Below are positions 16,155 to 36,651 of a stretch of 64,000 nucleotides of DNA, in pieces. A program made the position numbers and the translations under genes. This stretch comes from an uncultured delta proteobacterium (GTDB taxonomy: Bacteria; Desulfobacterota; Binatia; Binatales; Binataceae): contig CAWFAJ010000002.1 in assembly GCA_963813785.1 (NCBI GenBank), forward strand, positions 137,815 through 201,814, written 5' to 3'. The notes beneath the pieces were generated by a model that saw nothing but the letters and a program-made list of their open reading frames with translations, had not been told where the DNA came from and searched no databases. How positions within the stretch are numbered: position 1 is the stretch's first letter; the number at the start of each line of letters is the position of its first letter.

Positions 16155-16155
16155 G

Positions 16156-16530
16156 GTGTTGGCGCTGCTTCTGGTTGCGGTGGGCGGCGGCATCGGATCG
16201 GTGGCGCGGTATTTGGTCGGTGGCTGGTTTGCCGACCGCTTTGGTCCCGCGTTTCCGTACGGGACATTCGTGATCAATGTCACGGGAAGCTTCATCATAG
16301 GGTTTTTCCTGGCGTTCGCTCAGGAGCGGATATCACTCAGCCCCTACTGGCGCCTGTTTTTCGCCGTGGGCTTTGTCGGTGGCTACACCACATTTTCGAC
16401 TTTTGAGTACGAATCGGTTCGCTTGCTTCAAGACGGAGAGATGCTGCTGGGCGCGCTATATCTTCTCGGCAGTGTGCTCACCGGAGGTCTCGCTGCAATC
16501 GGGGGAATCGTATTGGGAAGCTGGGTATGA
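16156..16530 (+). CDS. crcB: Fluoride ion channel CrcB/Fluc.
   Basis: 124-aa four-TM protein with the GTFVINVTGSF and GGYTTFSTF motifs. GTG start 2 nt after the upstream stop. Confidence 0.9.
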   Translation: MLALLLVAVGGGIGSVARYLVGGWFADRFGPAFPYGTFVINVTGSFIIGFFLAFAQERISLSPYWRLFFAVGFVGGYTTFSTFEYESVRLLQDGEMLLGALYLLGSVLTGGLAAIGGIVLGSWV

Positions 16531-16692
16531 CCCAGCCCCGTCGCGGTTGACTGTAAAGGACAGCCCGTCGGAGTCAGCTAAGACTGGTGATAGGGTTTAC
16601 CGCCGTCCTTTCCTAAGCATGGCTGACGACCCCTACCGAGGCCGCAAGGCCGGTTGGGAGTTTTCGTTCAGTCGAACAATTTGCGCATCCCG

Positions 16693-18222
16693 TCATCCGC
16701 CGCTGGGAATGGGAGATGCGCGGACCGCGCGCTCGAACGCCCAGCTACGAATGTGATTGATCTGTTCCTTCATGGTGCGCGCCAGCGGAACCACCTCACC
16801 GGCGGCCATGAAGAGGTCCTGCTCGGTAACCTCATGCTCCTTCAGCCGCGCCTTGGTCAGCGCCGATACGACCGACTGCTCGACCTCGGCGCCGGTCCAG
16901 CCCTTCATAAAAGCCCCCAATCGTTCCAGATCAAACTTGGTGGTATCAATTCCCCGGCGGCCGAGATGAATCTTCAAGATTTCGATCCGTTCGGCAACCA
17001 GCGGCAGGTCAACGAAGAAGACCTCGTCGAAACGTCCTTTGCGAATCATCTCGGCGGGGAGCAGGTCGATTCGGTTTGCGGTGGCGGCGACAAAGAGCCC
17101 GCGCGCCTTCTCCTGCATCCAGGTCAGAAAGAAGGCGAAGATCCTGCCCTGCTCGCCCCCGGGTTCCCCCGAGGTAATTCCCATCTCAATCTCGTCGAAC
17201 CAAACCACCGCGGGCGCCATATCCTCGAGCGTCTTGCAGGCCTGGACGAATGCTCCCTCGGGCTCCCCATGCCTGCCGGAGAAAACCTCGATCATGTCGA
17301 TTCGATAGAGCGGAAGCTCGAAGTGCGAGGCGATGGCTTTGACGCAGAGGCTCTTGCCGCAGCCCGGGATGCCCATGACGAGAACGCCCTTGGGTACTAT
17401 GTCAGTGCTCAGGCTCTCGCGGAGTTGAAACAGTTTGCGACGCTCCAGCAGCCACTGCTTGAGCTTCTCCAGGCCGCCGACCTCGCCGATGCTCGTGCTG
17501 TCGGCAACAAACTCGATGACGCCGCCGCGGTTGACCAGCAGCCGCTTTTCCTCGAGCAGCGCCGGTAACGACTCGGGGCCGAGGGTTCGACTCGCCGCCA
17601 GAGCACGGCGCACCGCGTGGCGCGCCTCCTGAAGCGTGACTCCCTGCAGGGCGCGTGCGAGCTGGTGCAGGGTTTCCTCGCTCACCTCGGTGCTCACGCC
17701 GGGCGCCGAGAGTTGCTGAGCCTCGCTGCGCATAAGCTCGACCAGTTCGATCAGATCGGGCGGCCGCAACTCGATATATACAAGGTCCCGCTCGATTTCC
17801 TCAGGAACGAATCGCACCGGCGAACTGATGACTACGAACTTCCGTTGATCGAGACAGTCTTCGTACAGGTCTCGAAGACGGCGCCTGACCTCGGGAGATT
17901 CGCGCAGCGGCTCGTGAAAGTCCTTGAGATGGAAGATGGCGGCGTCCTTGTGGGCGGCGATGAAGTCCAGAGCTTCGCGAGGATCGAGAGTGCCGGCCTG
18001 GGCCACTCCGTCGTCGCGAAGCATTCCTTGCGTGAGGCTCCAGGTCCAAACCGGCACCGGTGTGGACGCGTGCAGCGCCCGGCCGACCTCGCGCAGCACC
18101 CTTCCGATTCGCTGCTCTTCGGCGGAGCGGATATAGGTCAGCGGCCGTCCCGACTGGAAGATCTCACGCAGCATCTTTGCCGCGCGGCTCTCGACAGACT
18201 GAGGTTTTGTAGAATCGTCCAT
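16693..18222 (-). CDS. AAA+ ATPase, Ycf46/SpoVK-like (N-terminal domain plus a single C-terminal AAA module).
   Basis: Walker A GIPGCGKS, Walker B VVWFDEIE, and an arginine finger region. The N-terminus (GRPLTYIRSAEEQR) resembles Ycf46-type proteins. Confidence 0.7.
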   Translation of the reverse strand: MDDSTKPQSVESRAAKMLREIFQSGRPLTYIRSAEEQRIGRVLREVGRALHASTPVPVWTWSLTQGMLRDDGVAQAGTLDPREALDFIAAHKDAAIFHLKDFHEPLRESPEVRRRLRDLYEDCLDQRKFVVISSPVRFVPEEIERDLVYIELRPPDLIELVELMRSEAQQLSAPGVSTEVSEETLHQLARALQGVTLQEARHAVRRALAASRTLGPESLPALLEEKRLLVNRGGVIEFVADSTSIGEVGGLEKLKQWLLERRKLFQLRESLSTDIVPKGVLVMGIPGCGKSLCVKAIASHFELPLYRIDMIEVFSGRHGEPEGAFVQACKTLEDMAPAVVWFDEIEMGITSGEPGGEQGRIFAFFLTWMQEKARGLFVAATANRIDLLPAEMIRKGRFDEVFFVDLPLVAERIEILKIHLGRRGIDTTKFDLERLGAFMKGWTGAEVEQSVVSALTKARLKEHEVTEQDLFMAAGEVVPLARTMKEQINHIRSWAFERAVRASPIPSGG

Positions 18223-18390
18223 AGAAAAATCGCGGGAGTTGCGAGCCTGCGCTCGACTCCTTCGGCAACCCTCGGATGCGTCGGTTCAAATCATAGCGGT
18301 CGCGAGTCTGGCGGTCACGCGCCGGTATCGAGAAGAACAGGCGCGCGTTAACTTGGCCGGCAGCCCCGCGATTTGTGAGTTATCGAAGCC

Positions 18391-19191
18391 TCAATCCGCC
18401 GGCGGGACCCGCAGCGTTAGCACGTGAGGTCCGCGGAAATAGCGGTCAAACTCCCCGCCGACGTAGTTCCAATTATCATTGGGATTGAACCACGCGTCCA
18501 TCGTTGGCATGAACGGCGCGAGCAACAGATTCAAGGCTCCGAGGTCGGGCCGCATATCGAGACGGACGAGATCGCCGGGGTATAGGGGCCAATGCTCCGA
18601 TCGATGCGGAAGCGACGCCTCGACGCTGAAGATCTCAGGTCCTGGGACGCATGCGAACGCATGGAATTTGACTTCACGGATCCCATGCCTGAGGCTCGCG
18701 ACCACCATCATCAGTTCGGACGCGCCGGCGAAAGAATCGGCTGGGACCTCGAGCTGCGACTTGCGCACTTTTATCTTGTCCGCAGTATAGCTCGCGCACG
18801 AGGCAAGGCCGGTTTTGGCGTTAAGCGTGTCGACCATATGAAGCGTGCCGTCGGCGTTGAAAAACGAGTGCTCGTAAGTGTCGAGCCTGGGTGTGGAGTC
18901 CGGACTTGCGGCGTATAGCCGTTCGCTTTCATTATCGCGTTCGCCGTCCAGGTACCTGGTCTCGCCCCTAACCTCTTCGGTTGAGTTGTCATGCAAGACC
19001 ATGAAACGCGTAGATCCGATCGTTTGCTTCCCGTCGGGACTCAAGACCTTCAACTCGAGCGCGCCGAAATCGAAGGCGCCGCTGGAATTCGGTCCGGATG
19101 CGACCGCGTTCACCCAGACCGCCGCGATGGCCGCTAGCGAGAACACCACCAGCAACGTCGTTCTCAAAATCCGGCTCCAGGGCAATAGCAC
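18391..19191 (-). CDS. Hypothetical secreted protein (signal peptide).
   Basis: N-terminal hydrophobic signal. No confident family. Confidence 0.45.
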   Translation of the reverse strand: MLLPWSRILRTTLLVVFSLAAIAAVWVNAVASGPNSSGAFDFGALELKVLSPDGKQTIGSTRFMVLHDNSTEEVRGETRYLDGERDNESERLYAASPDSTPRLDTYEHSFFNADGTLHMVDTLNAKTGLASCASYTADKIKVRKSQLEVPADSFAGASELMMVVASLRHGIREVKFHAFACVPGPEIFSVEASLPHRSEHWPLYPGDLVRLDMRPDLGALNLLLAPFMPTMDAWFNPNDNWNYVGGEFDRYFRGPHVLTLRVPPAD

Positions 19192-19200
19192 GGCTGCTGG

Positions 19201-20460
19201 TCAAGCGCTCCGGTGGACTTCCGGTGAGAATTGGGCCGCAGTCCAAGTGCGGCCGAATCCCGAGTTTGCGGCGCGACGGTGAGAAATCAGGGCCGCCAGA
19301 ATTTCGGGGACTTCAAACACCGCACGGTTGTCGAGGGCCTCTACGCTGGCGCGGAGGCGGAGGAACTGCTCGCGATCCAGCATCGTCGAAACCGCAAGCG
19401 CGATCTGCCGGAAGGAGGGCAGCACTATTCCGAGCCGATTTTGCGCGATCCAATCGGTGTTGAAGCGCTCCTGCACCATCGTCCACGCGTTGCGCTCCAC
19501 TATCACCGGGAGATCCATAACAAGTGCTTCGCTGATGCAACCCGGACCTGGCTTGCCGATGAAAAAATCAGCCAGCTGCATGAAGTACGGAATTTTTGGC
19601 GTGAAGCCTACACAATGAAAAGGATAAGACAGCTTCATGCTTTCGATACGCTCGCGCAGCTTGTCATTGTGACCGCATACGAAAATAAGCTGGGTCTTCA
19701 GTCGGGCGGCTTCGATTCTTCGCGCGATAGCTGCCATCTGGCTCGAGCCGTAGCTGCCAAATATCACGATGCCGGTCGGCAACTCGGGGTCGAGCCCCAG
19801 CCGGATTCGCTCGGCTTCGCGGCTTAGCTCCATCGGGCAATAGAACTCAGGACGCACGATCATTCCCGAGGTGCGAAACACGCGCGCGCGATCATGTCCC
19901 ATAGCTATCGCTTGCCTGGCTGCGGTAGCAGTGCCGCAAATCAGGTACTGCTTTTGTCGTTCGATCCAGAAATGCGGCGGACAGTCGGCCAGGTCGGTAA
20001 GAATCGTGACCATAGGAGTTTCCGATCGCGCCTGCATCGCATCGGCTTGTCGCAGGCCTTCCAAAATCGCGTGATTGAAATTGGGGATCATCGATACGAC
20101 AAGGTCGGGCTGCGAGCGCTGCCAATGGCGCGCCAGCAGCTTGATAATCGTCGGCTCGATTTGCCGAATCACCATCTGCATTATCCGCAGCAGCGGACCG
20201 GTGCCGATGGTGAGACCGTATTTGAGCTGCGAATTGTAGAAGTCTTCCACGCGAACTCCGGTGAGGCGTCGGATCACGTCGGCCGGTTCGAGCAGATCGC
20301 GTAGGTTGATTAGGTTGATTTGCCACGAACGATGCTGTTGCTCAACCGCCGATATCAGCGCTCTTGCCGAAGCGCGGTGTCCACCACCCGCGTCGAAGTA
20401 GATCAGGTCGAGTTGTGCATCCGGGTAATTCGTCGATTCGAGACAATAAGTTGTCACCAC
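19201..20460 (-). CDS. Glycosyltransferase family 28, MGDG-synthase-like (diacylglycerol glycosyltransferase).
   Basis: N-terminal FDAGGGHRASARAL motif (MGDG_synth) and a C-terminal GT-B domain. Confidence 0.75.
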   Translation of the reverse strand: MVTTYCLESTNYPDAQLDLIYFDAGGGHRASARALISAVEQQHRSWQINLINLRDLLEPADVIRRLTGVRVEDFYNSQLKYGLTIGTGPLLRIMQMVIRQIEPTIIKLLARHWQRSQPDLVVSMIPNFNHAILEGLRQADAMQARSETPMVTILTDLADCPPHFWIERQKQYLICGTATAARQAIAMGHDRARVFRTSGMIVRPEFYCPMELSREAERIRLGLDPELPTGIVIFGSYGSSQMAAIARRIEAARLKTQLIFVCGHNDKLRERIESMKLSYPFHCVGFTPKIPYFMQLADFFIGKPGPGCISEALVMDLPVIVERNAWTMVQERFNTDWIAQNRLGIVLPSFRQIALAVSTMLDREQFLRLRASVEALDNRAVFEVPEILAALISHRRAANSGFGRTWTAAQFSPEVHRSA

Positions 20461-21248
20461 GCCACCCGATCCGACATCGGTTCGGAAACCGAAATCTTCT
20501 GGTGTAAATCAATCCAATGGATGACCTGCAGCGTTCCGTCTTGCTCCTCCACCACCGCCGTCCGGTGCTGCACCCAATCACCGTCGTTCACATACAAAAT
20601 GGTTCCGATCAGCCGATGATCCGAGCGATGAATATGTCCGCAGATCACGCCGTCGGCATTGTGGTCGCGCGCGGCTGCAAGGACCGCTCGATCCCGGAAG
20701 TCAGTGAGGAACTCAACGGCCTTGCGGGCGGGGTAACGGAAATAGTCGGAAAGCGATCGGCCTTCATTCCCTTCCTGTCCGGACTGACGATGGTACCAGT
20801 CATGGATCCGCTGGGCTCGCGCGTACGCGTAGGATCCGATAATCGGCAGCAGACGATTTGGGTTGAGTGAGCCGTCGAATTGATGCCCATGGGTCACGAG
20901 CATCCTGGCTCCGTCGGCAGTGGTGTGGATTAAAGAACTTATGGAAGGGATGGACCCGAAGAGTTCTTCAACGAGGCTGACCCTGGACTCGTCATGATTT
21001 CCCGGGAGGAATACTACGTTGGCGCCACGCCGGCGCCAGTGCACGATTTCATTCACCAGCTCCTGTTGAACCGCACTCCAGTGCCACGAAGGTCCCCAGT
21101 TCCATCCGTCTACTATGTCGCCAACGAGGTAGAGGGTCTCAGCGATGTGATGGCGCAGGAAATCGAGTAAGCAGCCGGCCTTGCATGCGCGGGTTCCGAG
21201 ATGAACATCGGATATCCAGATCGCTCGGTAATATTTGGGTTGAATCAT
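20454..21248 (-). CDS. LpxH-family metallophosphoesterase (UDP-2,3-diacylglucosamine diphosphatase-like).
   Basis: WISDVHLG ... LYLVGDIVDGW ... GNHD metallophosphatase motifs arranged as in LpxH. Confidence 0.7.
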   Translation of the reverse strand: MIQPKYYRAIWISDVHLGTRACKAGCLLDFLRHHIAETLYLVGDIVDGWNWGPSWHWSAVQQELVNEIVHWRRRGANVVFLPGNHDESRVSLVEELFGSIPSISSLIHTTADGARMLVTHGHQFDGSLNPNRLLPIIGSYAYARAQRIHDWYHRQSGQEGNEGRSLSDYFRYPARKAVEFLTDFRDRAVLAAARDHNADGVICGHIHRSDHRLIGTILYVNDGDWVQHRTAVVEEQDGTLQVIHWIDLHQKISVSEPMSDRVAW

Positions 21249-21730
21249 CGCCTACCTTTTCTTCCATTTTGGCTCGCGTTGATGGCAACACGAGCGTCCC
21301 TTCCGCCTGCAACCTGCGACCCGCCGATCAACCTTCACCGATCGTTCCGACATTTCGTGCCGGGACTTTATCTGCCGATATGCAATCAGATCGGAACTTC
21401 GATAACTACACAATTGGTGAACTGCGGCTGAAGAGTGAGATAGGAAAGAATGATAAATGTATTAGCAAGTTGCTACTCGCATATTAACGCAAGGCTACAT
21501 TGACGATTAGCTATTCGATGCCGAGTGGCCCGGTTTCCGGGAAAACTGAGCATCGAGCGCGCGATAGTAAGGCGATGGATTTCGCCGGCACTCCCGCAGG
21601 TGCCGAAGCGCCGCCGCCAGCTACGCAAGTCAGCATTACTGCGATATAATCGCGCACAGCCTCGGATTACGCGCGCCAACTTCCGCGGCGCTGATGACTG
21701 CCGACACCGAGATTCGGGCGGCGGTACAAA

Positions 21731-23005
21731 ATGGGAGATGACCGATTGATGCCGAAGAAACCGCAAATGCTGGAAGGCTACCGGGTTCTGGATTTCACGC
21801 AATTCGTCGCAGGGCCGACCTGCACGCGAATCCTCGCTGAGATGGGCGCTGAAGTAATCAAGGTGGAACTCGCGCCTTACGGCGACCGCATCCGCTCCGA
21901 AGGGCTCAAGTCGCTCGCGCCTGAATTCAAGAAGTCGAGCCACAGCACCTACTATCTGCAGCACAACCACTCAAAGCTGAGCTTTGCGATCGATCTCAAA
22001 AAGCCCGGAGCGCGCGAGATCGTGATGTCGATGATTCCGCAGGTCGACGTGGTAGTTGAAAATTTCGCGCCGCGGGTGATCGACCGGCTCGGATTTGCCT
22101 ACAAGGACATCAAGGCAGTCAATCCGAAAATCATCATGTGCTCGATTTCGATGGCGGGGCAGACCGGACCGCTGTCGGTCAAGGCCGGCTACGATTTTAT
22201 CGGCCAGGCCTATGCGGGGATTACCGACGGCATCGGGCAGGCCGATGGGCCGCCCGCGCTGACGACAATGGCAATCGGTGACGTTTCAACCGGGGTCGCC
22301 GCCGCGATGGCTGTCGGCTTCGCGCTGTTGCATCGCGAGCGCACGGGAGAAGGCCAGTATCTCGACGCGTCGCTGCTGGATACCTACTTCCACATGCACG
22401 AGAAGACCGTGCCGATCGTGTCGTTGCGCGGCGACAAATTTCGACCGACGCGAACCGGTTCGATCCATCCCGACGGCGGCACCACCGGCATTTTTCATTT
22501 CCGTGGCGATCAATACATTCTGATTACATCGACGCCGCATCAATGGCCGCAGCTGGTGCGGGCGCTCGGGATGCCTGAATTGGCGGCCGACCCGCGCTTC
22601 AAGGATCCTCGCGGGCGGCGCGACAACAAGGAACAACTGAGAGACGTGATCGAGAAATGGCTCACACGCTTTCCGACCCGCGACGACGCGATCGCCGCGC
22701 TGGATGCTGAACGCGTGCCGTGTGCTCCGGTGCTGACGGTCAACGAAGCCATCAAGCATCCGCATCTCAACGAGCGCAAGACGGTTCGCTGGGTGGAGGA
22801 TCCGATTTTGGGCAAGGTGGCGATTCCGGGTGTGCCGGTGAAGTTTTCGGCATGGCCGGACCGGACAGAGGTGCGTTCGTCGAGACTGGGCGAGGACAAC
22901 GAGCGCATACTGCGCGAACTGCTAAAGATGCCGGCGGAGCGGATTGCCAAGCTCTACGCCGAAGGAATCCTGGTCCGCGATTCGACGCTCGAAAGGCAGG
23001 GGTGA
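21731..23005 (+). CDS. CaiB/BaiF family III CoA-transferase.
   Basis: 424 aa with family-III CoA-transferase hallmarks (YRVLDFTQFVAGPTCTRILAEMGAEVIKVE). Confidence 0.85.
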   Translation: MGDDRLMPKKPQMLEGYRVLDFTQFVAGPTCTRILAEMGAEVIKVELAPYGDRIRSEGLKSLAPEFKKSSHSTYYLQHNHSKLSFAIDLKKPGAREIVMSMIPQVDVVVENFAPRVIDRLGFAYKDIKAVNPKIIMCSISMAGQTGPLSVKAGYDFIGQAYAGITDGIGQADGPPALTTMAIGDVSTGVAAAMAVGFALLHRERTGEGQYLDASLLDTYFHMHEKTVPIVSLRGDKFRPTRTGSIHPDGGTTGIFHFRGDQYILITSTPHQWPQLVRALGMPELAADPRFKDPRGRRDNKEQLRDVIEKWLTRFPTRDDAIAALDAERVPCAPVLTVNEAIKHPHLNERKTVRWVEDPILGKVAIPGVPVKFSAWPDRTEVRSSRLGEDNERILRELLKMPAERIAKLYAEGILVRDSTLERQG

Positions 23006-23140
23006 CCGCAGGGGTGACCCCTGCACCCGGTATTAAGGCCGCGCTCCGGTGGCGGCGCGCGGCCCGTGCCGCGGGTGCACGGTGTCTTAATACTGGCCAG
23101 CCGTGCCAACGGTCAGGAGTGACCCGTGCACCTTAGCGTG
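23003..23140. repeat. REP/MITE-like palindromic element, copy 2, inverted relative to copy 1.
   Basis: GGGGTGACCGCAGGGGTGACCCCTGCACCC ... CTTAATACTGGCCAGCCGTGCCAACGG ... GAGTGACCCGTGCACC. The internal 28-mer is the reverse complement of 7809-7836. Confidence 0.6.
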
Positions 23141-23206
23141 CAGGCATGTCGGTCAGCAGCCCGCATTCGAGCGGCGGCGTAAGGATAGTTGCGGCGCGCT
23201 GGAAAG

Positions 23207-23683
23207 CCCTTTGGACTTAAAATTTTCAGTAGGGCAACCACCGTGCGGGTTCGAGTCCCGCCCCCGGCATTTGAGGGAGTTCGTCGCCGCCCTTTGTCAT
23301 TTCGCGGCTTTGCCCTTTCCCTTCATTTGAACCGTCTGCATCTCACTCGGTTCGAGGTTGTCGGAGATCGTCAGAGTTCCTGTGTACGACACCGCTTGGG
23401 TCGGCGCGAACTGTACCGCGACCTCGCAGAAGGTCTCGGTCTTCGGCACTCCTTTTCCGCCCGGCTGCAACTCAACGTCGGAGCACTGCGTCGAGACCGA
23501 AAACGGCGACGGCGCCGGCGTTCCACTCGCGCTTTCTATCTCGATCAGTATCGGCAGCGGATGATTGGTCTTCTTGATTTTGCCGGCGTTAGTCACTTTC
23601 ACCATCTTGATCTTCGATTGATTCACGGTGACGGTGCCGAAGTTCAGTTTTTTCGGAGAAACCTTGAGCTTGCCCGCGACCGC
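23207..23683. repeat. Direct repeat block A (about 475 bp, near-identical to 28207-28678). It contains a tRNA-like 3' fragment (23227-23269, GGGTTCGAGTCCCGCCCCCGGCA) and the 3' end of a surface-protein gene.
   Basis: The ORF-track proteins 23189..23791 and 28239..28841 are identical over more than 150 aa. A single SNP is visible (ctcggtcttc vs ctcgctcttc). Confidence 0.85.
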
Positions 23684-25300
23684 CGTTGGTGTCGCGGTTG
23701 GGGTTGCGGTGACAGTTGGTGTTGCCGTCGCAGTCGGTGTCGCGGTCTTGGTCGCCGTTGCGGTCGCGGATGCGGTCGGGGTCGCCGTTGATGATGCTGT
23801 CGCGGTCGGTGTTGCGCTGGCCGTTGACGTAGCGGTCTTGGTCGCCGTTGCAGTCGCGGATGGGGTCGGCGTCACCGATGCGGTCGCGGTGGCAGTCTTG
23901 GTTGCTGTGGCAGTGGCGGTCGCAGTTGGAGGTCGGGGTCGGTGTTGCGCTTTGAGTGCGTCGGCGTTGCATTGCTGAGGCTGTCGGAGTCGCCGTCGCG
24001 GTTGCAGTTACGGTCGCGGTGGGGGTGGCTGTTGCAGTTGCTTTGGGGACATTATAGCAACAGGCCTCTCTCACAGTCTGGCTTTCGGGCCCGCAATCTC
24101 GACTACTGGCGACGCATCTCCTTTGCTGCCCGAAGCGAATTCCATGATGCTGTCGTCGGGCTAGTTCGAGGCGATGTTTGTCACATATATGTTCTCTGCC
24201 GAATCAACCGCTATTCCAGAGGGCCAGTAGAGGCCTGTGTGTGGCCCACCTATGACGGCGCTCGGCGAGATATTGCCGGTCTGTAAGGCCGGAAACTCCA
24301 GTATTTCTTGGTTACTCAAAACGTACACAGTTCCGCTGCTACGAGCTGCCACCGCCATCGGACCGTTCAACTGGGTATTCGACCCTGCGATTGTCCTATC
24401 AGGGCTCCTCCGTCTAGCGTCGATATTCAGTGATCGCGTTGGCGTCACGGTTCGCGACGTACACGACCCCCGTCGCATCGATCGCGGCTCCAAAGCCTGA
24501 GAATCCAGTGCTCACCGTCGCGACAGGCGATGTGTTACGGCCTGTCCCGCGGCAAACTTCAAAAGATCGCAGGGGGATCGGGAATAGACAGTCCAGACGT
24601 TGTCGGAACTGTCCAAGACAATTCCGCGCGGGACGGCCAGTGACGTGTTCGGACCGAGATCGTTAGTGATGGCCCAATGTCGCCTGCCGAGTCTTTCGGA
24701 AACTCCAAGATAGACCTGGCGCCCCGGGTATGTCGGTTACGAAAATATTGCCATGGCTGTCCAAGGCAATTCCTCCGAGATTAATACAGAGGTTAGTGTA
24801 CAGCACAGCGATATACGCACTAGGTGACGCATCTACAGCACTACCCGGCAAACTTTGCTATACAGAGAGCCGAACGATCAGAGGACTGACAGGCAACGTA
24901 AACGTCGGATGACGCTGTGAGTGAGGGAAGTACACCGGTACCGTACAGGTGAAAGATATGCGGGCTGTACGGGGCGTCATCCGTAAACGTGAGGTAAGCG
25001 TTATAAAGCTGACCGCTGGAGGCTGAAAAGACACAGACATGGAGCAGCTTGCCACGGGGACGAGAGCTGCGACGGTGCAACGTCGTTGATAGAAAAGGCG
25101 GAGGGGTCCGCGCACACAGAGAGCAACTACGGCCACGTGAACATCAGCGTAGACACTGCTGTACACCACGACGGACACGGGAGCTGTAGGACTGCAGACA
25201 TCTTGCGAGCAGAAATAGAGGCTCGGAGGCAAGAATGAGAGCTGCGGGCAGGCTACCGTGGTGAAGCTCTGATAGCTGTCGCACGACAGCATCCCGCCGG
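23297..25300 (-). pseudogene. Degenerate remnant of an NHL-repeat surface-protein paralog. It has an intact C-terminal Ig-like domain plus a Thr/Pro/Ala linker, then fragmented NHL repeats (YVTNIASN, GNIFVTDIPG) in several frames.
   Basis: ORFs 23297..23875, 23589..24074, 24161..24493 and 24663..24851 are all fragments with homology to the 28293-31585 gene. GC declines progressively. Confidence 0.5.
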
Positions 25301-25502
25301 CATTCGCACATATCTAGAAATGGTACTCGGAATTGCAGGCAAGCCCGGTCAACGAATATGACACGGATACGGTGTTGTTGAACGGAGAGAGCGTGGCTAC
25401 AGTTCCTGTGGTAGTGCCGTAATACATAGAGAGTACGTAATAGAAGTTAACCGTCGACTGCGAGCCATTTGGATTAACGGTGCTGTTTAGTTGTACTAAG
25501 TT

Positions 25503-26080
25503 CTAGGTGATAGAGCTGGCAGGATATGTTACGACGGTTGCGGTGCAGGGCGGGGTAGTGAAGCTTTCATCGTCGTCGCAAAGCGTTCCGCCCCCATTAG
25601 TTGCACAAACTTCGAAATGGTACACTGTGTTGCACGAAGACCGCTGACAGATGTAGAGACGGTAATAGTCGTCGTGCAGACTGCAAAAGGACCTATGGTG
25701 CTCGTCGTGGTCCCATAAGCGGTGGTCTGGCCGTAATTGAAGTACACGGTAGTTTGCGAACCGTTCGGATTTACATCGCCACTTAGTCGCGCGCTGTTTT
25801 GCGTGACCAAATCTGTAGGTTTGGTGTAGACAACGGCTGAGGGCTGAGAGCAGGAAAGGGTAGAAAAACTCTGGTCGCCGTCGCAGGCTGTCCCACTTGC
25901 ATTCGTTGCACAAACGTCGAAGTGATACGTCGTGAAGCAGGTAAGAAGCGATAGAGGTGGCGGGGTAGATCGTTGTAGTGCCTACAGCGAAGGGTACGAT
26001 GGTGCGAGTAGAGCTGCCATAGGTCGTTGTCTGGCAGTAATAGAAGTAGACGGTGGTCTGTGACCCAAAGGGAAAACAGA
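25503..26080 (-). pseudogene. Degenerate tandem Ig/Fn3-like surface-protein repeats (motif VNPNGSQTTVYFNYGQTTAYGTTTST), lower GC and not in a continuous frame.
   Basis: Two tandem units of about 250 bp are visible in the DNA. ORF fragments 25529..25810 and 25503..25913. Confidence 0.4.
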
Positions 26081-26759
26081 GGAGAAAAATAGGGAGGCAT
26101 ATAGGATAAAAAAATAAGCTGAATATGAGGAGACAACTGGAAGAGGTAGGAAAGATAATAAGGTAAAAGACAGTACAACGCTAAGAGGGCTAAAAGTAGA
26201 GTTGTAGCTGAAGAGCAAGGTAGAGACAATGCTGAAGAGAGTAGAAGGCTGAAACGTTAGAGAAGTAGAAACTAAGGCTAAGAGAAAGAGTTGCTAAGGT
26301 ACAGATATAGGTATAGATAAAATCTACAGCACTAAAGAAGGATATGCTAAAAGAGGTTATAGACAGATAGGAGGAGAATGGATAGCTAAAGATCACTGTA
26401 TGAGGTGAGACAGAGACTAAGACCGGCTAGGGTGAGAAGATCACAGTTAGAGGGTAGAACGATAAGATGGGTAAGGAGAGTATAAAGTAAAGGTAAAGCT
26501 GTAAGAGGTCTGTAGGTAGGGATAGCTAAAAGACAAGCTACAGGGCAAAGCAACGCTGAGATCGTTGAATACATACTGAAGCTCAGTATCGGAGACGAAA
26601 GACAGTTTGCTCTGTTTGCTTGGGAAGGGGGTGCCTTCCGGATCGATGAAGGTGAGAGACGCAACATTCTGGAAGTTATACACATAGACGGTAAATAGCT
26701 GATCACTATTGGAGGCGGGTAAGATGAAGGTGAGATACTGGTGATAGAAGGGGTGGAGA

Positions 26760-28200
26760 TGATAGGGCTAGGTATCTATGACAAGAAGATTAAGATAAAA
26801 GAGAAAAGAGGAAAGATAGGATAATATAAATTGAGAGTAAAAAGAGATAGAAGAAGAATAAGAGAGATGGAAGAGAAAGAGATGGTGCTGGAAAAGAAGG
26901 CGATAGATACAGGCAATATGAGAGATGACAAAGAAGAGAGAGAGATAATGAGAAATAAAAAGATAGAGAAAAAAAAAGAAAAATGAAAGAAAAAGAGATA
27001 AGAAGGAAAGAAAGAAAGAGATAAAAAAAGTAAAATAAAATAAAGAAAAAAAAATAGAAAAAAATAAAAAAGAAAAATGAGAAAAATAAAAAAAAAAGAA
27101 AAAATAAAAGAGATAAAAAAAAATATATAGAAAAATAATAAGATAAGAAAAAAAAAAAAAAAATAAAAAAGAAAAAAAATGAATATAAATAAGAAAAAAA
27201 TAAGAAAATAAAATGAGATATAAATGAGAGAAAAAAAATATAAAGAAATATGAATGAGAAAAAAAATAAAATAGAGAAAAATAAATAAAAAAAATAAGAG
27301 ATAAAAAATAAATATAAAAAAAAAGATAAAAAGAAAAAAAAATGAGAAAGATAAAATAAGATAAGAAAGAAAAAATGAAAGAAAAATAATAAAAAAGAAT
27401 AAATGAAAAAAAAAAAAAAGAATTCACGCTAACGACAAATAAAAATAAGAAATAAAAAAAAAAAAAAAAAAAATAAAAGAAATAAAAAAAAAAAATAAAA
27501 AAAAAAAAAAAAAGAATAAATAAAAAAAAAAAGAAAAAAAAAAAAAAAATAAGATAAAAAAAAAAAAGAAAGAAAAAAAGAAAGAATAAGAACGATAAAA
27601 GAGAAAAATAAAAAAAAGAAAGAAAAAAAAAAAAAAAAGAAACAGAAGAAAAAAAGAAGAAAAAGAAGAAAAAAGAAAGAAAAAAAAAGAAAGACAGAAA
27701 AGAGAATGCAAAGAAGAAAGAAAGAAGAAAAAGAAAAAGAAGAAAAGAGAGAACACGAAAAAAAACGAAAGAAAAAAAAAAAAGAGAGAAAAAAAAAGAA
27801 AGAAAAGAAAAAAAAAAAAAAAAAAAAGAGAGACAGAAAAAAAAAAAGAAAGAAAGAAGAAAGAAAAACAGGAGAAGGAAAAAAGAAAAAGAAAGAAAAG
27901 AAAGAAGAAAAAAGAAAAAAGAAAAAAAAAAAGAAAAAAAAAGAAAAAGAAAAAAAAAAGAAAAAAGAGAGGAAAGAAAGAGAAAAAAGAGAGAAAGAGA
28001 GGGAGAAAGAAGAAAGAGAAGAGAAAGAAAAAAAGAAAAAAAAAAAAAAAAAAAGGAAAAAAAGAAAGAGAAGAAAAGAAAAAAGAAAGACAGAGAGGAA
28101 GAAGAAAGAAAAAGAAAAGCTAAAAACAAAAAGAGAAAAGAAACAAACAAAATAAAAGAAAAGAAGAAAAAAAAGCGGAAGAAAACGAGGAGTTATACGC
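26760..28200. repeat. About 1.44-kb A-rich homopurine (A/G) low-complexity tract on the + strand. The 27560-28190 segment is essentially pyrimidine-free. Preceded (about 25950-26760) by an A/G/T-rich zone of decaying complexity.
   Basis: Direct reading: long runs of a and g only, with rare c and sporadic t in the first half. The F/L/S-only ORF 26768..28150 (-) and the K/E/R-only ORF (+) are a trivial consequence of this composition. Confidence 0.9.
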
Positions 28201-28206
28201 AAAAAA

Positions 28207-28678
28207 AAGGACTTAAAATATTCAGTAGGGCAACCACCGTGCGGGTTCGAGTCCCGCCCCCGGCATTTGAGGGAGTTCGTCGCCGCCCTTTGTCATTTCG
28301 CGGCTTTGCCCTTTCCCTTCATTTGAACCGTCTGCATCTCACTCGGTTCGAGGTTGTCGGAGATCGTCAGAGTTCCTGTGTACGACACCGCTTGGGTCGG
28401 CGCGAACTGTACCGCGACCTCGCAGAAGGTCTCGCTCTTCGGCACTCCTTTTCCGCCCGGCTGCAACTCAACGTCGGAGCACTGCGTCGAGACCGAAAAC
28501 GGCGACGGCGCCGGCGTTCCACTCGCGCTTTCTATCTCGATCAGTATCGGCAGCGGATGATTGGTCTTCTTGATTTTGCCGGCGTTAGTCACTTTCACCA
28601 TCTTGATCTTCGATTGATTCACGGTGACGGTGCCGAAGTTCAGTTTTTTCGGAGAAACCTTGAGCTTGCCCGCGACCG
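28207..28678. repeat. Direct repeat block B (partner of 23207-23683), with the tRNA-like 3' fragment at 28223-28265.
   Basis: See block A. Confidence 0.85.
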
Positions 28679-31585
28679 GCGTTGGAGTCGCGGTCGGAGT
28701 AGCGGTGGCAGTTGGAGTTGCAGTCGCGGTTGCTGTGGCTGTCGCGGTTGCTGTGGCTGTCGCGCGTTGCCGACGCGGTTGGCGTCGCGGTCGCCGTTGA
28801 TCGATGCGGTCGCGGTCGGTGTTGCGCTGGCCGTTGAGTAGCGGTCTTGATCGCCTTGGGTCGCAGTCGGTGTCGCGGTCTGGTCGCCGTTGCGGTCGCG
28901 GATGCGGTCGGGGTCGCCGATGCGGTCGCGGTCGGTGTTGCGCTCGCCGTTGATGATGCCGTCGCAGTCGGTGTCGCGGTCTTGGTCGCCGTTGCAGTCG
29001 CGGATGCGGTCGCTGTCACCGTTGCCGATGCGGTCGCGGTCGGTGTTGCGCTCGCCGTTGACGTAGCGGTCTTGGTCGCCGTCGGCGTCGGAGTTGCCGT
29101 CTTGGTCGCAGTTGCCGACGCGGTTGGCGTCGGCGTGAGAGTGGCCGTGCTGGTGGCCGTCGGCGTCGCAGTGACGGTCGGGGTCGGGGTCGCTAGTGGC
29201 CTATCGTATTCGAGCACTCGGCTGTTGTTCTCATCGGCGACGTAGAGGTTGCCGCTGGTATCCACTGCAACCCCGGCGGTTGGGATAGGCTGTCGCCGCT
29301 CAGACCACCGTGGTTGGCGGTGCCCGTGGAGAAGCTGCCACCCTGCCCGAACACGCGTATCGGCGGTGGTGTCGGTCGATGAGCGGGACTGTTGTATTCG
29401 AGCACGCGGTTGTTGCCGTCGTCGGCGACGTAAAGGTTGCCGCTGGCGTCCACTGCTATCCCGCCGGGTGAGGATAGGCTGTCGGCGCTCAGCCCGCCGT
29501 TGTTGGCGGTGCCCGAGGCGAAGTTGCCGCCCTGCCCGAACACCGTATCAGCGGTCGTGTCGGTGGTGAGCGGGGTGTTGTATTCGAGCACGCGGTTGTT
29601 GACGTTGTCTGCCACGTAGAGGTTGCTGCTGGCGTCCACCGCAACCCCGGTGGGTGGAGAGGCTGTCGGCGCTCAGCCCGCCGTTGTTGCGGTCCCGAGA
29701 TGAAGCTGCCGCCCTGCCCGAATACGGTGTCGGCAGTGGTGCCGCTGGTGAGCGGGGTGTTGTATTCGAGCACGCGATTGTTGCCGTTGTCGGCTACGTA
29801 GAGGTTGCTGCTGGCGTCCACCGCAACCCCGGTTGGGAGAATTCAGACTATCTGCGCTCAGCCCGCCCTTGTTGGCAGTATTCGAGGTGAAGCTGCCGCC
29901 CTGCCCGAACACCCGATTGGCGCCCGCACCGACGCATGGGAGTGAACCGCAGCCGGCAAATGGGGTGTTGTATTCGAGCACGCGGCTGTTGTACTGGTCA
30001 GCTACGTAGAGGTTGCCGCTGGCTGTCCACTGCAACCCCTACTGGGAAGCATAGGTTGTTTGCGCTTGCGCTCGAGCCGTTGAATCGCAGTCGCCTGAGT
30101 GAAAGTCGGGCTGACCAATTACCAGGTCGGCCGCACCGCCGTTGGCGAAGGTGGTCACATCTTTGATAGCCGAGCACTCGGCTGTTATTGGTGTCCTCGA
30201 CGTAAAGGCGGTTCGGCGTCGTGCTCGCGTCAATCGCCACGGATTGGGGAGCGAAAAGGCCGCTGGCGTCGATAAAGTTTGCGCCATTGTGGGAAAAGTC
30301 GAGCTGCCCCAGCACTACATCGGCGGTGGTGTCGGTCGAAAGCGGGGTGTTGTATTCCAGCACTCGGACGTTGGGTCCGTCGGCCACGTAAAGGTTGCCG
30401 CTGGCGTCCACCGCAACCCCCACCGGATGGGACAGACTATTCGCACTCAGCCCGCCGTTGTTGGAGGTGTTCGAAGCGAAGCTGCCGCCCTGCCCGAATA
30501 CGGCATCGGCAGTGGTGCCGTTGATGAGCGGGGTGTTGTATTCGAGCACGCGGTTGTTGCCGTTGTCGGCGACATAGAGATTGCCGCTGGCGTCCACCGC
30601 AACCCCAGAGGGATAGCGATAGGCTGTTCGCGCTCAGCCCGCCCTGGTTGGGGGTACTCAAAGTGAAGTCGCCACCCTGCCCGAATACGGTATCGGCGGT
30701 GGTGCCTTTTGTGAGCGGGGTGTCGTATTCGAGCACGCGGTTGTTGGTTTCGTCGGCGACGTAGAGATTTCCGCTGGAGTCGAGTGCAACCTGTTCGGGA
30801 GAGCACAAGCTGTCGGCGCTCGTCCCGCCCTCGTCGCAGGTGCCCGTGGTGAAGTTGCCGCCCTGCCCGAACACCATATCGGCGGTGGTGTCGGTTGAAA
30901 GCGGGGTGTTGTATTCGAGGATGCGGTTGTTGCCGTTGTCGGCTATGTAGAGGTTGCCGCTGGCGTCCACCGCAAGCCCTGCGGGATGGGACAGGCTATC
31001 CGCACTCAGCCCGCCGTTGTTGGAGATGAGCGAAGTGAAACTCCCGGCTTGCCCGAACACCACATTGGCGGAGCCGCCGACACACGGAAATGAACCGCAT
31101 CCGGCGAATGGAGTATTGTATTCGAGCACGCGGTTGTTGCTCTGGTCAGCTACGTAGAGGTTGCCGCTGACGTCCACCGCAAGCCCGGCGGGTTGGGAGA
31201 GGCTTTCCGCACTCACGCCGCCGTTGTCCGAGGCGCCTGAGATGAAGTCGGGCTGTCCAATTACCAGGTCGGCGCCGCCGCCGTTGGTGAAGGTAGTTAC
31301 GTCCTTGTAGCCCAAGACCCGGTTGTTGGCGCCGTCGGCTACGTATAGGCGGTTCGGGGTCGTGCTCGTGTCAATCGCCAGGAATGCGAGACCGTTGAAA
31401 CCTTTGGCGTCGACCAGGTTTGCGATCTTGTGGGAAAAGTCGAACTGACCCAGCACCCGGTCGGCCGTGGTATCGCCCACAGCTCCCACGACCATCGCCG
31501 CGTACAGCGCGACGGTCAGCGTCCCGACTGCAAGACCCAGCACCCTGCGATTCGATGCCTTGGCGCGTACAACTCGGAAATTCAT
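28293..31585 (-). CDS. Very large secreted NHL-repeat (beta-propeller) protein. It has a Thr/Pro/Ala-rich linker and a C-terminal Ig-like (choice-of-anchor-D/ASH-like) domain. The frame is interrupted at least 5 times (near 29230, 29560, 29750, 30020 and 30520), so it is either a pseudogene or has repeat-induced assembly errors.
   Basis: Signal peptide MNFRVVRAKASNRRVLGLAVGTLTVALYA with a GGGAGG RBS. Repeats of about 61 aa (NNRVLEYNTPL.TDTTAD.VFGQGG.F....N.GGLSADSLS.P.G.AVDASGNLYVAD) with a 183-bp DNA period. Consecutive ORF-track fragments 30437..31585, 29998..30597, 29673..30035, 29489..29821, 29193..29639, 28585..29265 and 28293..28622. Confidence 0.7.
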
Positions 31586-32103
31586 CGGTCCTGCCTCCCG
31601 AACCGGGAATGGCCGCTAAATCAGCGCAAGCACGGTAAGCCGACACTAATCGCATGAAACCAGTCACAAGGCAAACCGGCGCCGCAGCGTGAGCCGCTTG
31701 GTTCAGCCAGAAAAAAGAGGGGGCCGGCCTTGTATACGCGTCGTCGGCCAACGCAGGCCGTTGCGCCTGCAAACCGACCTGTTAGGCCCTTTGACCAATC
31801 GGATGCCCTTCAAAACTTACACATAAACTTGCACATTTCCAGATGACTAAAGAATTAAAACCAATAATTTCATATGAGTTAAAGATAAACTTAAGGGACT
31901 TAAGACCGGGCGCGCACTTCGCATTTGCCCAATGCCCGGCGCCGGTGCTAATCCGATTCAGGATTGAAAATGGAAATTCCGGATGAATCAAGTTCAGAGA
32001 CTTATCCGGGTGAACTGCGCGTAGCTCTTAGTGCGCGATAGAGCGCCGCTGGACCGATGCGGCGCTGAGCAGGATCGATAATCGTGAAAGGACCGGACGC
32101 GCC

Positions 32104-33027
32104 GTGACATCGCTCGCGAGCGCATACACGCCATCGCCAGAGTGGAGCGCGTTTCGCGACTACCCCGGCAATCCGCTGATCGAACCGCACTGGCCCGAGT
32201 GGATCATCGCGGACCCGACGGTGCTTTCTCCGGAGGTGACGCCGGACGGGCGCTGGCACTTGTTCGCGAACGGGCTTAGGGGGATCTACCACTTCACGAG
32301 CGCGGACGGCTTGACCTGGACGCGCGGGAGCCACGCTCTGTTCGGCGGGATGCGGCCGTGCGTACGGCGCGTCGGCGACCGCTTTCTGCTCTTCTACGAG
32401 CACTACCTGAGCTTGCGCCGCTCGGTCGTGGAGCTGCGCACGTCAAGCGACCTGGTCTCGTGGAGCGCGCCCCGCATCGTTCTCGAGCCCTCGCTGGCGT
32501 GGGAGGGCCGAATGCCGGCGGCGACCGGCAACCCGTGCCTCGTCGAGGGGCGATCGGCCTTCATTCTGTACTACAGCGCCGCCGCGGTCTTCCTCAGGGA
32601 TTGCATGTTCATCGAGCCGCGTTACGTGGGCGTGGCCGAGGGCGACTCGCCGGAGGGGCCGTTTCGCAAGCGCGCGCAGCCGATCCTGTCGCCCTCGCGC
32701 GACGATCCGTATCGCAACCTCGGTGCGGGCGCGATCAAGGTCTTCCGCGACGGCGACGGCTTCGTGGGCCTCCAGAACGGGATCTACCGGGACGCCACGG
32801 GCGCGACCGGCTCGGCGATCCTGCTGCTGGCGTCGGCGGACGGCTTCGCATGGACGCAAGTGGATCCTGAGCCGATCATCAGGCCGGAAGGGAGCGGGTG
32901 GAAGCGCGCGTTCGTCTATCAGCTCGACGTCGCGCGCAGCGGCCGAGAGCTACGCCTTTACTACAACGCCCGGAGCGGCTGGTTCCTCGGCGCCGAGAGG
33001 ATCGGCGTGGCGATCGCGTCGACATAG
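32104..33027 (+). CDS. Five-bladed beta-propeller glycoside-hydrolase-like protein (GH43/GH130/DUF377-like).
   Basis: Motifs DPTVL, GRWHLFANG and YHFTSADGLTW suggest the GH43-like propeller superfamily. Assignment by memory only. Confidence 0.5.
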   Translation: MTSLASAYTPSPEWSAFRDYPGNPLIEPHWPEWIIADPTVLSPEVTPDGRWHLFANGLRGIYHFTSADGLTWTRGSHALFGGMRPCVRRVGDRFLLFYEHYLSLRRSVVELRTSSDLVSWSAPRIVLEPSLAWEGRMPAATGNPCLVEGRSAFILYYSAAAVFLRDCMFIEPRYVGVAEGDSPEGPFRKRAQPILSPSRDDPYRNLGAGAIKVFRDGDGFVGLQNGIYRDATGATGSAILLLASADGFAWTQVDPEPIIRPEGSGWKRAFVYQLDVARSGRELRLYYNARSGWFLGAERIGVAIAST

Positions 33028-33129
33028 TCGCGCTGCCCGGTCGCGGTCCGTAGCTGCGTCATCGGCCCATTTCGCGCCGGTAAGAGCTATGCGCAAGGAG
33101 TCCTAGTCCGCGATCCGACACTCGAAAGG

Positions 33130-33256
33130 CAGGGGTGACCCCTGCACCCAATGTTAAGACCGCCCGCCGTTGGCGGGCGCGGCATGAAGGAAGAATCACC
33201 TGCGCGGTGGGCGGCAGGGGCTGCAGCCCCTGCACCCGCAGTGAGAAGACGCGATG
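33130..33256. repeat. REP/MITE-like element, copy 3. Left hairpin GCAGGGGTGACCCCTGCACCC, right hairpin GGCAGGGGCTGCAGCCCCTGCACCCGCAGTGAGAAGACGCG.
   Basis: Perfect palindromes CAGGGGTGACCCCTG and CAGGGGCTGCAGCCCCTG. The right 40-mer recurs at 34018-34058. Confidence 0.6.
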
Positions 33257-33299
33257 GAAGAGTCGCGGGCGGGAAAGGGGCGCTAGAGGCGTTGAACTC

Positions 33300-33950
33300 C
33301 TAGAGGCGGACTTCGGTGAGGCCGCGGACGGAATTGCCGAGAAAAATGCGATCGGCCGACGCAAGGTCCGCCACCGTCAGCACGCATTCACGCGTGGGAA
33401 TCGCCTGACTATCGAGCATCCATTTTCGCAGCGTGCCGTCCAGCAGCCCGCATTCGAGCGGCGGCGTAAGGATAGCCGCACCGCGCTGAATAAACACGTT
33501 GGTGCGCGCGCCTTCGGTAACTTCGGCGCGTTCGTTGACGAAGATTACGTCGAAGCATCCGGTGCGCGCCGACCAGGTCCTAAGCTCGGAGTCGTACAAG
33601 GCGCGCCGGGTCGTCTTATGGCGCAAGATAGGATCCGCGCTCGAAACCGCAATGGCGGAAATCACCGCGCGTGGGATAGGTTCCTTGTGACCGGGTGGTT
33701 CGATTGGGGCAGCGGATACCGATAGCATACCGTCCGGCGCCAGTCTCAGTCGAATTTTCCAGAACGGCTCGGCGGACAGGTTACCAGCGGATCCTAGCAG
33801 GGTGCGGGTGACCTCGCCCAAGTCACACGGGAAACCCAAGCATCCCGCCGACGACGCGAGGCGCCGCAAATGGTATTGCAGGAGCATATAGCCGGACGAC
33901 CTCGTCCAGAGCATGCTTTCAATCAGGCTGAATTCCACGTCTGTGGCCAT
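33300..33950 (-). CDS. pabC: Aminodeoxychorismate lyase (class IV aminotransferase fold).
   Basis: 216-aa class-IV aminotransferase-like protein immediately downstream of the fused pabAB. Confidence 0.7.
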   Translation of the reverse strand: MATDVEFSLIESMLWTRSSGYMLLQYHLRRLASSAGCLGFPCDLGEVTRTLLGSAGNLSAEPFWKIRLRLAPDGMLSVSAAPIEPPGHKEPIPRAVISAIAVSSADPILRHKTTRRALYDSELRTWSARTGCFDVIFVNERAEVTEGARTNVFIQRGAAILTPPLECGLLDGTLRKWMLDSQAIPTRECVLTVADLASADRIFLGNSVRGLTEVRL

Positions 33951-34017
33951 CGCCTTTCACCCGAGAGCTGGAGAACTTAATTGTATGCGAAACCCACCGT
34001 GGGTTTCACACTTCCCT

Positions 34018-34060
34018 GGGCAGGGGCTGCAGCCCCTGCACCCGCAGTGAGAAGACGCGA
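34018..34060. repeat. REP-like hairpin unit, copy 4 (GGCAGGGGCTGCAGCCCCTGCACCCGCAGTGAGAAGACGCG), a direct repeat of 33215-33256.
   Basis: 40/40 identity with the right arm of copy 3. Together they bracket pabC. Confidence 0.6.
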
Positions 34061-34305
34061 AAATCTGCGCAACGCATCTTTTCGCGACTACGCGAGGGAA
34101 CAGCGCTGCACCCGGTGAAAGGTGAAAAGTGAAGATGCGGGACTTCGTCCCTGTTAGAGGGGTTTATCAGAAAAGAAGATCGCGCGTCCGTTGTTTGTGT
34201 CCTCACGAGCGCAGGGAAAAAGATCCGGGGTCCCTCGACTTCGCAGACTTCGCTCGGGATGAGGGATCAAGAACGTGAAGACAGAATGACATGCGCACGG
34301 CTCTT

Positions 34306-36396: not shown

Positions 36397-36651
36397 TTCG
36401 CGCGCCACTGATATTGCATCCGCTCCCACCGAAAATGAAAGCATCGATCGCAAAGCATCGGGAGGCAAGGCATCGATCGGCGTGGTGGACTGCCGGGGCC
36501 GGTCTGGGCGGACCGAAGCCGGGTTGCGGCTTGCGGAAGGTGGCTGTTCGGTCTACAAGGATCAAAGAGGCAAAGAGGGAATCGCAGGTTGTTGTTTTTT
36601 AGCTAAGGTCGATCAGGGAACAATTTAGCGCTTGGCCTTCAGGAGGAAGAC

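Follow-up and report, generated by a model that had tools for sequence, protein, structure and literature searches.

What placed two almost identical stretches of DNA, each opening with what resembles the 3' end of a transfer RNA (tRNA), 5 kb apart in the genome of an uncultured bacterium? The window analysed here is the whole of a 64,000-nucleotide (nt) stretch of contig CAWFAJ010000002.1 (assembly GCA_963813785.1) from a Binatia-like bacterium, in which the repeats lie between a CoA-transferase gene and a GH43/PabC/PabB cluster. An earlier note, made from the letters alone, took the tRNA-like ends for attachment (att) sites of integrative elements and predicted that the intervening 5 kb could be lost by recombination. 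We think it probable that the two stretches correspond to the left ends, homologous to each other, of two related units inserted in tandem and devoid of an integrase gene. This reading is carried by the tRNA origin of the first 57 nt of each repeat, the boundaries of the insert, an empty site in relatives, a 10-nt core repeated at the junctions, the recurrence of an AT-rich arm module at other loci, and the presence or absence of the first unit among assemblies of one species.

Repeats that open with a tRNA-Leu(UAA)-like 3' piece

Repeat search and pairwise alignment gave two direct repeats of 470 nt each that differ at two positions (23224 T against 28220 A, and 23439 G against 28435 C), an identity far beyond chance. 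The earlier note had placed their starts at 23207 and 28207, which is 2–6 nt too far left; the repeat itself stands. Each block is made up of 57 nt of tRNA-like sequence, 27 nt of spacer and ~128 codons from the end of a gene.

23213–23682, no strand: repeat block A, 470 nt (repeat search, alignment)
28209–28678, no strand: repeat block B, 470 nt (repeat search, alignment)
23213–23269, plus strand: tRNA-Leu(UAA) 3' fragment A, anticodon loop to discriminator (fragment-profile nhmmer, E = 2e-21)
28209–28265, plus strand: core copy 2 (28209–28218) and tRNA-Leu 3' fragment B, together site B, an attP-like junction between the units (fragment profile, core match)

Beyond the blocks, homology continues for ~350 nt more at about 85% identity, through a Thr/Pro/Ala-rich linker of the gene (23213–24041 against 28209–29025), and to the left of the blocks similarity stops abruptly. 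The two copies share ~830 nt of homology in total, and ~88% of the 470-nt repeat is homologous cargo-gene sequence rather than att sequence. The abrupt divergence outside the blocks that had been reported therefore fails on the gene-internal side; to the left of block B it reflects a technical artefact described below.

Each block opens with GGACTTAAAAT... and then reads GCGGG-TTCGAGT-CCCGC-CCCCGGC-A, in which a T arm is succeeded by a 7-nt acceptor 3' strand and discriminator A (23245–23269 and 28241–28265), just as first noticed. The window has exactly two copies of the 27-nt T-arm/acceptor core, where shuffles predict none. In fragment A the 3' strand of the anticodon stem and the variable arm are decayed. 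ARAGORN found no complete cloverleaf at either site, its only report in the window being tRNA-Ala(GGC) at 13059–13135, and the sequence upstream of the fragments is not complementary to the acceptor strand, so the earlier observation that no 5' half lies upstream holds. A terminator and promoter scan around fragment A gave nothing, and a fragment-profile search gave no third tRNA piece in the window.

The earlier note had proposed a relaxed tRNA search of both sites. For the window copies, Rfam at E ≤ 10 and a search as truncated stretches gave nothing beyond the T arm, and the parent tRNA was for that reason found through an orthologue in a close relative (L001; loci from other assemblies are given L numbers). 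At the position of block B this relative carries CCAGAGGACTTAAAATCCTCTGGAGTGAAAGCTCCGTGCGGGTTCGAGTCCCGCCCCCGGCA, which, when treated in the search as 5'-truncated, matched the tRNA model at positions 23–71, including a long variable arm (29.0 bits against a gathering score of 29, E = 6e-5). Intact Binatia-type tRNA-Leu(UAA) genes in L079 and L114 differ from the L001 fragment by 1 nt. Judged by these matches, the 57-nt fragments derive from the 3' part of tRNA-Leu(UAA) and start at the anticodon loop.

We scanned 185,579 species genomes for the pattern CTTAAAA-N18-26-GCGGGTTCGAGTCCCGCCCCCGGCA (anticodon loop plus T arm and acceptor) and recovered at least 120 loci. Among the matches listed, at least 111 lay inside intact tRNA-Leu(UAA) genes and at least 16 were orphan 3' pieces, which, again among the matches listed, start in or next to the anticodon stem-loop, except in L025 and L048. 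Such orphans are frequent in metagenome-assembled genomes (MAGs) of Binatia (L029, L048, L093, L108 and L117, with three inside 3.5 kb in L098), and are thus a recurrent feature of Binatia-like genomes. The window fragments are a more decayed variant, and their 19 nt between anticodon loop and T arm resemble the GGGAGGGCAACCTCC variable arm of the L098 orphans.

At site B these same 19 nt differ among three assemblies of one species (window 28180–28240, L001 5140–5210, L129 10380–10450), as do ~30 nt to the left of the core, in near-identical surroundings. The differences may be element variants, conversion from other tRNA-Leu copies or an effect of polishing.

An empty site and three copies of the core

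With the CoA-transferase protein as guide, a scan of JGI metagenome contigs recovered 80 loci. The closest of them (93–96% amino acid identity) have no NHL gene, Ig domain or tRNA piece, and run from the CoA-transferase directly into GH43 and/or PabC-PabB. In L130, L131 and L140 the left flank of the window (to 23222) is joined to its right flank (from 31896), the overlap being the 10-nt core. The empty site of L130 and L131 reads ...GCGCGCTGGAAAGCCCTTT GGACTTAAAA CCGGGATCGCACTTCGCATTTGC..., with one copy of the core, and immediately around it ...GGAAAGCCCTTT GGACTTAAAA CCGGGATCGC...; the left flank of the window agrees with this up to 23222. From 31896 onwards the right flank is 91% identical to L130 5248–5551 and overlaps the left-flank match by the core.

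The window holds the core three times, as GGACTTAAAA at 23213 and 28209 and as GGACTTAAGA at 31896. Site A reads ...GGAAAGCCCTTT GGACTTAAAA TTTTCAG..., then the tRNA piece; site C (31896–31905) reads ...GATAAACTTAAGG GACTTAAGA CCGGGCGCGCACTTCGCATTTGC... and has no tRNA piece. This third partner site was missing from the earlier account, which knew only two. The 10-nt core GGACTTAAAA is equal to positions 29–38 of tRNA-Leu(UAA), namely three stem bases and the anticodon loop.

23154–23201, plus strand: left host flank, remnant of the PabC 3' end (copy of 33441–33488; 35-nt exact repeat, 0 expected by chance)
23213–23222, plus strand: core copy 1, GGACTTAAAA, site A, attL-like (host flank / core and tRNA fragment), from the empty-site comparison
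31896–31905, plus strand: core copy 3, GGACTTAAGA, site C, attR-like (arm module / core / host flank), from the right-flank match to L130
32104–33027, plus strand: right host flank, GH43-like gene, which adjoins the CoA-transferase region in empty-site relatives

The left host flank is part of the ancestral CoA-transferase/PabC intergenic region, where L130 and L131 have a PabC fragment. At site A the core runs in tRNA register into the fragment; the repeat is therefore identity that insert and target have in common, of the kind left by site-specific integration, and no target duplication of the transposon type. The insert has a tRNA 3' piece whose start is a recognised crossover sublocation and a core at each end, and relatives without it show a single core at the empty site. 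Its target was sequence other than a tRNA gene, and no tRNA is regenerated at either end. Because the empty site has a single core and the window has three junctions, the tRNA pieces are not the remains of a resident tRNA gene; on the sequence comparison they read as att sequence borne by the element and inserted at a pseudo-attB. The proposal that tRNA 3' ends mark att sites thus survives as an att-type junction, but not in the sense of displaced ends of a resident gene, since the pieces came with the insert.

Two units in tandem

The insert comprises two units, E_A (23213–28208, 5.0 kb) and E_B (28209–31895, 3.7 kb), whose interiors are unrelated to each other. On the plus strand each runs from the 57-nt tRNA piece through 27 nt and an opposite-strand operon for secreted NHL/Ig-domain proteins to an AT-rich arm module.

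23297–23680, minus strand: gene A, last 127 codons and stop, C-terminal Ig-like domain of ASH/HYDIN type (sub-threshold ASH/HYDIN/Cep192_D4 matches)
23684–24041, minus strand: Thr/Pro/Ala-rich linker of gene A, about 67–85% identical to the linker of gene B (alignment)
24050–28208, minus strand: E_A interior, with the body of gene A (FN3/Ig/NHL repeats), a PGAP1/DUF676 lipase-like gene and arm module B; overwritten with A (alignment with L001)
28293–31585, minus strand: gene B, with signal peptide, NHL repeats, TPT linker and the same C-terminal Ig-like domain (family searches; weak ASH/HYDIN/Cep192_D4 matches)
27990–28208, plus strand: arm module B, ~230 nt, AT-rich, abutting the core, with CTTRCACA direct repeats; corrupted in the window (clean copies in L001, L129, L098 and L093)
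31780–31895, plus strand: arm module C, a diverged copy with CTTACACA/CTTGCACA at −80 and −68 from the core (arm comparison)

The blocks had been said to cover roughly the last 120 codons of an Ig-like gene, which agrees with the ~128 codons on the minus strand found here. In L001, where the E_A interval is clean, it codes for a large FN3/Ig/NHL protein and a PGAP1/DUF676 lipase-like protein. We also asked whether gene B, copied with noise, could account for the 5-kb interval and rejected this, as 24040–26100 matches nothing else in the window.

Homologues of the C-terminal domain carry precomputed PF22073, PF15780 and PF22544 domains. The low-complexity linker upstream of the domain (window 23297–23626 and 28293–28622; P0001–P0027) interrupts the reading frame or the gene call, so that all public assemblies list the domain as a stand-alone protein of 100–109 amino acids; the database entries for this family are therefore fragments.

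Gene B is broken into about 7 open reading frames (ORFs) in the window, against about 3 in L007, a contig of the same species, and contains internal repeats in 186-nt units that are 62–89% alike. Its NHL region (28680–31585) is 83–93% identical to L007, with flanks at 99.5–100%. Either this is a hypervariable repeat gene or the consensus is poor in internally repetitive DNA.

The arm module beside the core of site B is conserved at 80–87% in L001 and L129, and it is also conserved in a different species, in L098 and L093, where it comes from a Candidatus Binatus MAG built from Illumina reads. Two or three direct repeats of CTTRCACA lie 53–83 nt from the core in every copy; we regard them as putative arm-type integrase-binding sites. 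The module was absent from the 80 JGI loci, and an exact scan of viral contigs gave no match.

In L098 3360–6857 (Candidatus Binatus sp. MAG, JBAWCX010000276.1), three tRNA-Leu(UAA) 3' pieces occur in the same orientation inside 3.5 kb and set single genes apart, namely those for an NHL/propeller protein (ending 32 nt from the first piece), a methyltransferase and an ArsB-like transporter. The arm module is found only at the first of the three pieces.

The first unit is polymorphic within one species

E_A is a presence/absence polymorphism within one species. The 596-kb contig L007 (ENA ERZ25039537 contig_34516) is 99.5–100% identical to the window at 13296–23500 and 31500–38634, and holds a single copy consisting of gene B, linker and block, followed by the CoA-transferase flank. 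The forms seen were as follows.

L007, short: switch from B-type to A-type within the linker
L128, short: single copy, site-A flank
L003, short: B-type linker kept right up to the block
L001, long-form junction: gene B, block, fragment, AT-rich module, lipase-like gene
L129, long-form junction: same as L001; contig ends 545 nt past the stop

The predicted deletion of the intervening 5 kb is accordingly borne out by three assemblies that have no such segment and two that have it. The identity of the blocks and the copies of the core allow the loss of E_A. In L007 the crossover fell in the linker, so that this deletion at least came about by homologous and not by site-specific recombination; presence or absence at the level of contigs does not place a crossover in the core.

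An A-overwritten stretch in the deposited contig

From ~24050 to 28208 the composition of the window drifts away from the roughly 61% G+C found elsewhere in it, until A makes up 79% and C 0%. L001 (ENA ERZ25039467 contig_56864) is collinear with this interval over its positions 5171–9794, and differs almost only by substitutions to A on the plus strand, with almost no indels. Along successive segments the fraction of C>A rises through 9%, 21%, 55%, 89% and 92%, and that of T>A through 2%, 4%, 23%, 43% and 74%, with G>A appearing only in the last 1.4 kb, so that C was overwritten first, then T, then G. At 24000–26800, pyrimidine-to-purine changes make up 245 of 265 mismatches. The overwrite ends exactly at 28208, where it meets block B, and it affects that portion of the interval for which the neighbouring unit has no homologue. 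The T>A mismatch at 28220 inside the block is of the same X>A type.

To our knowledge no mutational process yields such a progressive change, and the overwrite is a technical artefact, not biology. The sharp divergence left of block B, up to 28208, is likewise not biological as written, and the 5 kb that had been taken at face value are in this record largely artefactual. The cause was probably a failure of consensus or basecalling where a minority haplotype was thinly covered. Related contigs have Flye-style names. MFD MAGs, which were recovered in our genome scan, were assembled from Nanopore metagenomes with metaFlye and one round of Medaka (PMC12313526), and the ENA contigs compared here may come from the same workflow.

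We rejected a natural purine- or A-rich low-complexity element at 26050–28208, as the stretch is collinear with normal L001 sequence and differs by X>A substitutions only. A simple loss of one bit in a 2-bit base encoding does not, by reasoning alone, fit the substitution spectrum. ORFs within the overwrite are meaningless, such as the 460-amino-acid, F/L/S-rich ORF at 26768–28150. About 4 kb of a deposited long-read contig are thus overwritten with A; gene calls and inferences from composition are invalid there, and the stretch could pass for an exotic polypurine element.

How the locus may have arisen

The locus reads host / core, tRNA piece, gene A, lipase gene and arm / core, tRNA piece, gene B and arm / core / host, which is the series of attL-like, attP-like and attR-like junctions expected of two related elements integrated in tandem. 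The units would have entered by site-specific recombination through an attP made up of arm, core and tRNA 3' piece, with a tyrosine integrase that targets tRNA-Leu supplied in trans. Integration may have occurred at a secondary site that mimics the anticodon loop, and accretion at the att site of this first unit would then have added the second. Both would by now be decayed islets resembling cis-mobilizable elements. The first 470 nt may be near-identical because the units recently underwent gene conversion or recombined with each other, and consensus polishing may have exaggerated the likeness.

Several observations weigh against this account. Pfam scans of all element ORFs, including the clean L001 and L007 copies, and of the scanned large ORFs elsewhere in the window gave no recombinase family, and there was none in the listed neighbourhoods of L001 and L007, nor an integrase next to the orphan fragments in L098, L108, L093, L029, L048, L117, L008 and L094. 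The integrative-element reading as originally put is in this respect incomplete. ARAGORN found no intact tRNA-Leu at either end of the insert. The arm module lies partly upstream of genes and could be a promoter, its binding of an integrase being putative. The short forms share the site-A fragment variant and none proves a crossover in the core, and the one in L007 lies in the linker. A single unit duplicated in tandem could have given rise to both E_A and E_B, and the near-identity of the blocks may stem partly from polishing with reads of a dominant short haplotype. No contig other than the window's own, which has corrupted sequence close by, shows the junction of left flank, block and gene A, and all of the evidence comes from metagenome contigs, several of them noisy.

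Some of these points would be expected under plain tandem paralogy, in which a gene with an old, passive tRNA scar was duplicated, its 3' ends were kept alike by conversion, and E_A was gained and lost by homologous recombination throughout, with no site-specific system. The ~830 nt of homology, a tract of 470 nt typical of conversion, the linker crossover in L007 and the lack of an integrase all suit it. Nevertheless, we regard it as unlikely. It does not explain why relatives lack the whole 3.7- or 8.7-kb insert and have at that site one 10-nt core with the sequence of the tRNA anticodon stem-loop, why the same core stands at the unit end at 31896, or why arm, core and fragment recur together at unrelated loci in another species; moreover, the interiors of the two units are unrelated.

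Very unlikely, in our judgement, is an assembly artefact, by which a genome with one copy (the short form) received the second block and 5 kb from another strain or locus through the long-read assembler. The interior of the segment is visibly corrupted, the same-species contig L007 is single-copy, the contig names are Flye-style, metaFlye with one round of Medaka produced the related MFD MAGs, and the site-B fragment of the window is the site-A variant, unlike those of L001 and L129. However, L001 and L129, which are independent assemblies from other samples, show the adjacency of gene B, block, fragment, arm and lipase gene and so support site B, and L001 continues through gene A into its linker. 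L007 has the distal linker of gene-A type by the block, which makes the order linker A, block, left flank a natural one. Since the linkers of the two copies differ, these are no trivial duplication. That the fragments are two decayed copies of a chromosomal tRNA-Leu gene once resident here accords with their derivation from tRNA-Leu(UAA), but is barely credible given that the relatives' empty site has no tRNA, only the 10-nt core in unrelated sequence, and that the intact tRNA-Leu(UAA) of related Binatia lies elsewhere, by a DUF992 gene.

Relation to known systems

Tandem inserted units of the kind we favour resemble, in part, several known situations. Islands in tRNA genes (tDNA islands) with displaced fragments follow a general model in which tyrosine integrases act at tRNA and tmRNA genes, as in Islander-type islands (PMC4383910). 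The locus shares with them a 3' tRNA segment borne by the insert, direct repeats at the ends, a crossover in the anticodon stem-loop and an empty site in relatives. It differs in that the target is a 10-nt look-alike and not a tRNA gene, so that no tRNA is regenerated, in that there is no integrase gene, and in that the units, of only 3.7 and 5.0 kb, are very small and carry one cargo operon each.

Cis-mobilizable elements (CIMEs) have lost their integration and transfer genes, have kept their att sites and form tandems by accretion, as described for ICESt1 and its CIME in Streptococcus thermophilus (PMC5704250). Since no recombinase was found, the units fit this published description: integration and transfer genes are gone, flanking att sites are kept, and related elements stand in tandem with a shared internal att junction (sites A, B and C), one member being variable. 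Unlike those CIMEs, they come from a different phylum, in Binatia-like MAGs, with no parent integrative and conjugative element (ICE), integrative and mobilizable element (IME) or cognate integrase identified; they also share 470 nt including cargo gene beside the att site, and their mobilisation is predicted only.

Temperate elements, such as lambda, integrate at secondary att sites. As there, the target at this locus shares only a short core with the normal attB; here, however, the normal attB, tRNA-Leu(UAA), is deduced solely from the fragment that the element carries, and the enzyme is putative. Gene-converted tandem paralogues likewise have a near-identical tract (here 470 nt) in a longer diverged homology, and deletion crossovers fall in the block or linker, as in L003 and L007, yet they leave the core repeats, the empty site and the recurrent arm module unaccounted for.

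Tandem integrase-less islands with tRNA-derived att ends are a familiar kind of mobile-DNA scar, of which this is a fresh example. It offers a concrete case in an uncultured soil lineage, with a look-alike secondary site and one unit polymorphic among co-existing strains. Island-finding tools that expect an intact tRNA and an integrase would miss such islands.

A bolder reading, which we consider doubtful, is that the combination of arm, core and tRNA-Leu 3' piece marks out a family of minimal gene cassettes in Binatia that have no integrase of their own. The cargo of a cassette would be one gene or operon for a secreted or surface protein (NHL, Ig, DUF1554, PA14). An integrase that targets tRNA-Leu would capture the cassettes in trans and shuffle them, and they would stack up in integron-like arrays; the two units here and the three pieces of L098, separating single genes within 3.5 kb, would be examples. 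If true, this would be a tRNA-att-based system for varying the cell-surface repertoire.

Further observations on the insertion site and on tRNA-Leu(UAA) pieces

Exact-protein look-ups of the flanking CoA-transferase ORF, the GH43-like ORF and P0027 returned nothing, probably owing to start-codon choice. The left host flank holds copies of a hairpin-rich intergenic segment and of a 35–48-nt piece of PabC 3' coding sequence (window 23008–23201 and 33129–33488). The CoA-transferase stands directly next to PabC in L134, L143, L144 and L177; GH43 is inserted between them in L136 and L137, and GH43 together with a PabC fragment in L130 and L131. By gene order, the gap between CoA-transferase and PabC is a recurrent insertion hot spot.

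In the related Binatia MAG L079 (4792–5534) an intact tRNA-Leu(UAA) is convergent with a DUF992 gene, and at the same place L108 (4467–5141) has an orphan 3' piece only. The window has its own DUF992 gene at 36652–37158, 5 kb from gene B, with no adjoining tRNA. We considered whether the window fragments are collinear with the DUF992-linked native tRNA-Leu locus of L079 and L108 and rejected the idea, since their orientation and position do not fit.

Orphan tRNA-Leu(UAA) 3' pieces were also present in Actinomycetota MAGs (L008 4392–4446, L072 729–782 and L094 395–1073), with a conserved left flank, GAAAAACTCAGACCGACCGAGATAGGCCGAGATC.... These are probably the end of a different, widespread family of integrative elements that uses the same tRNA.

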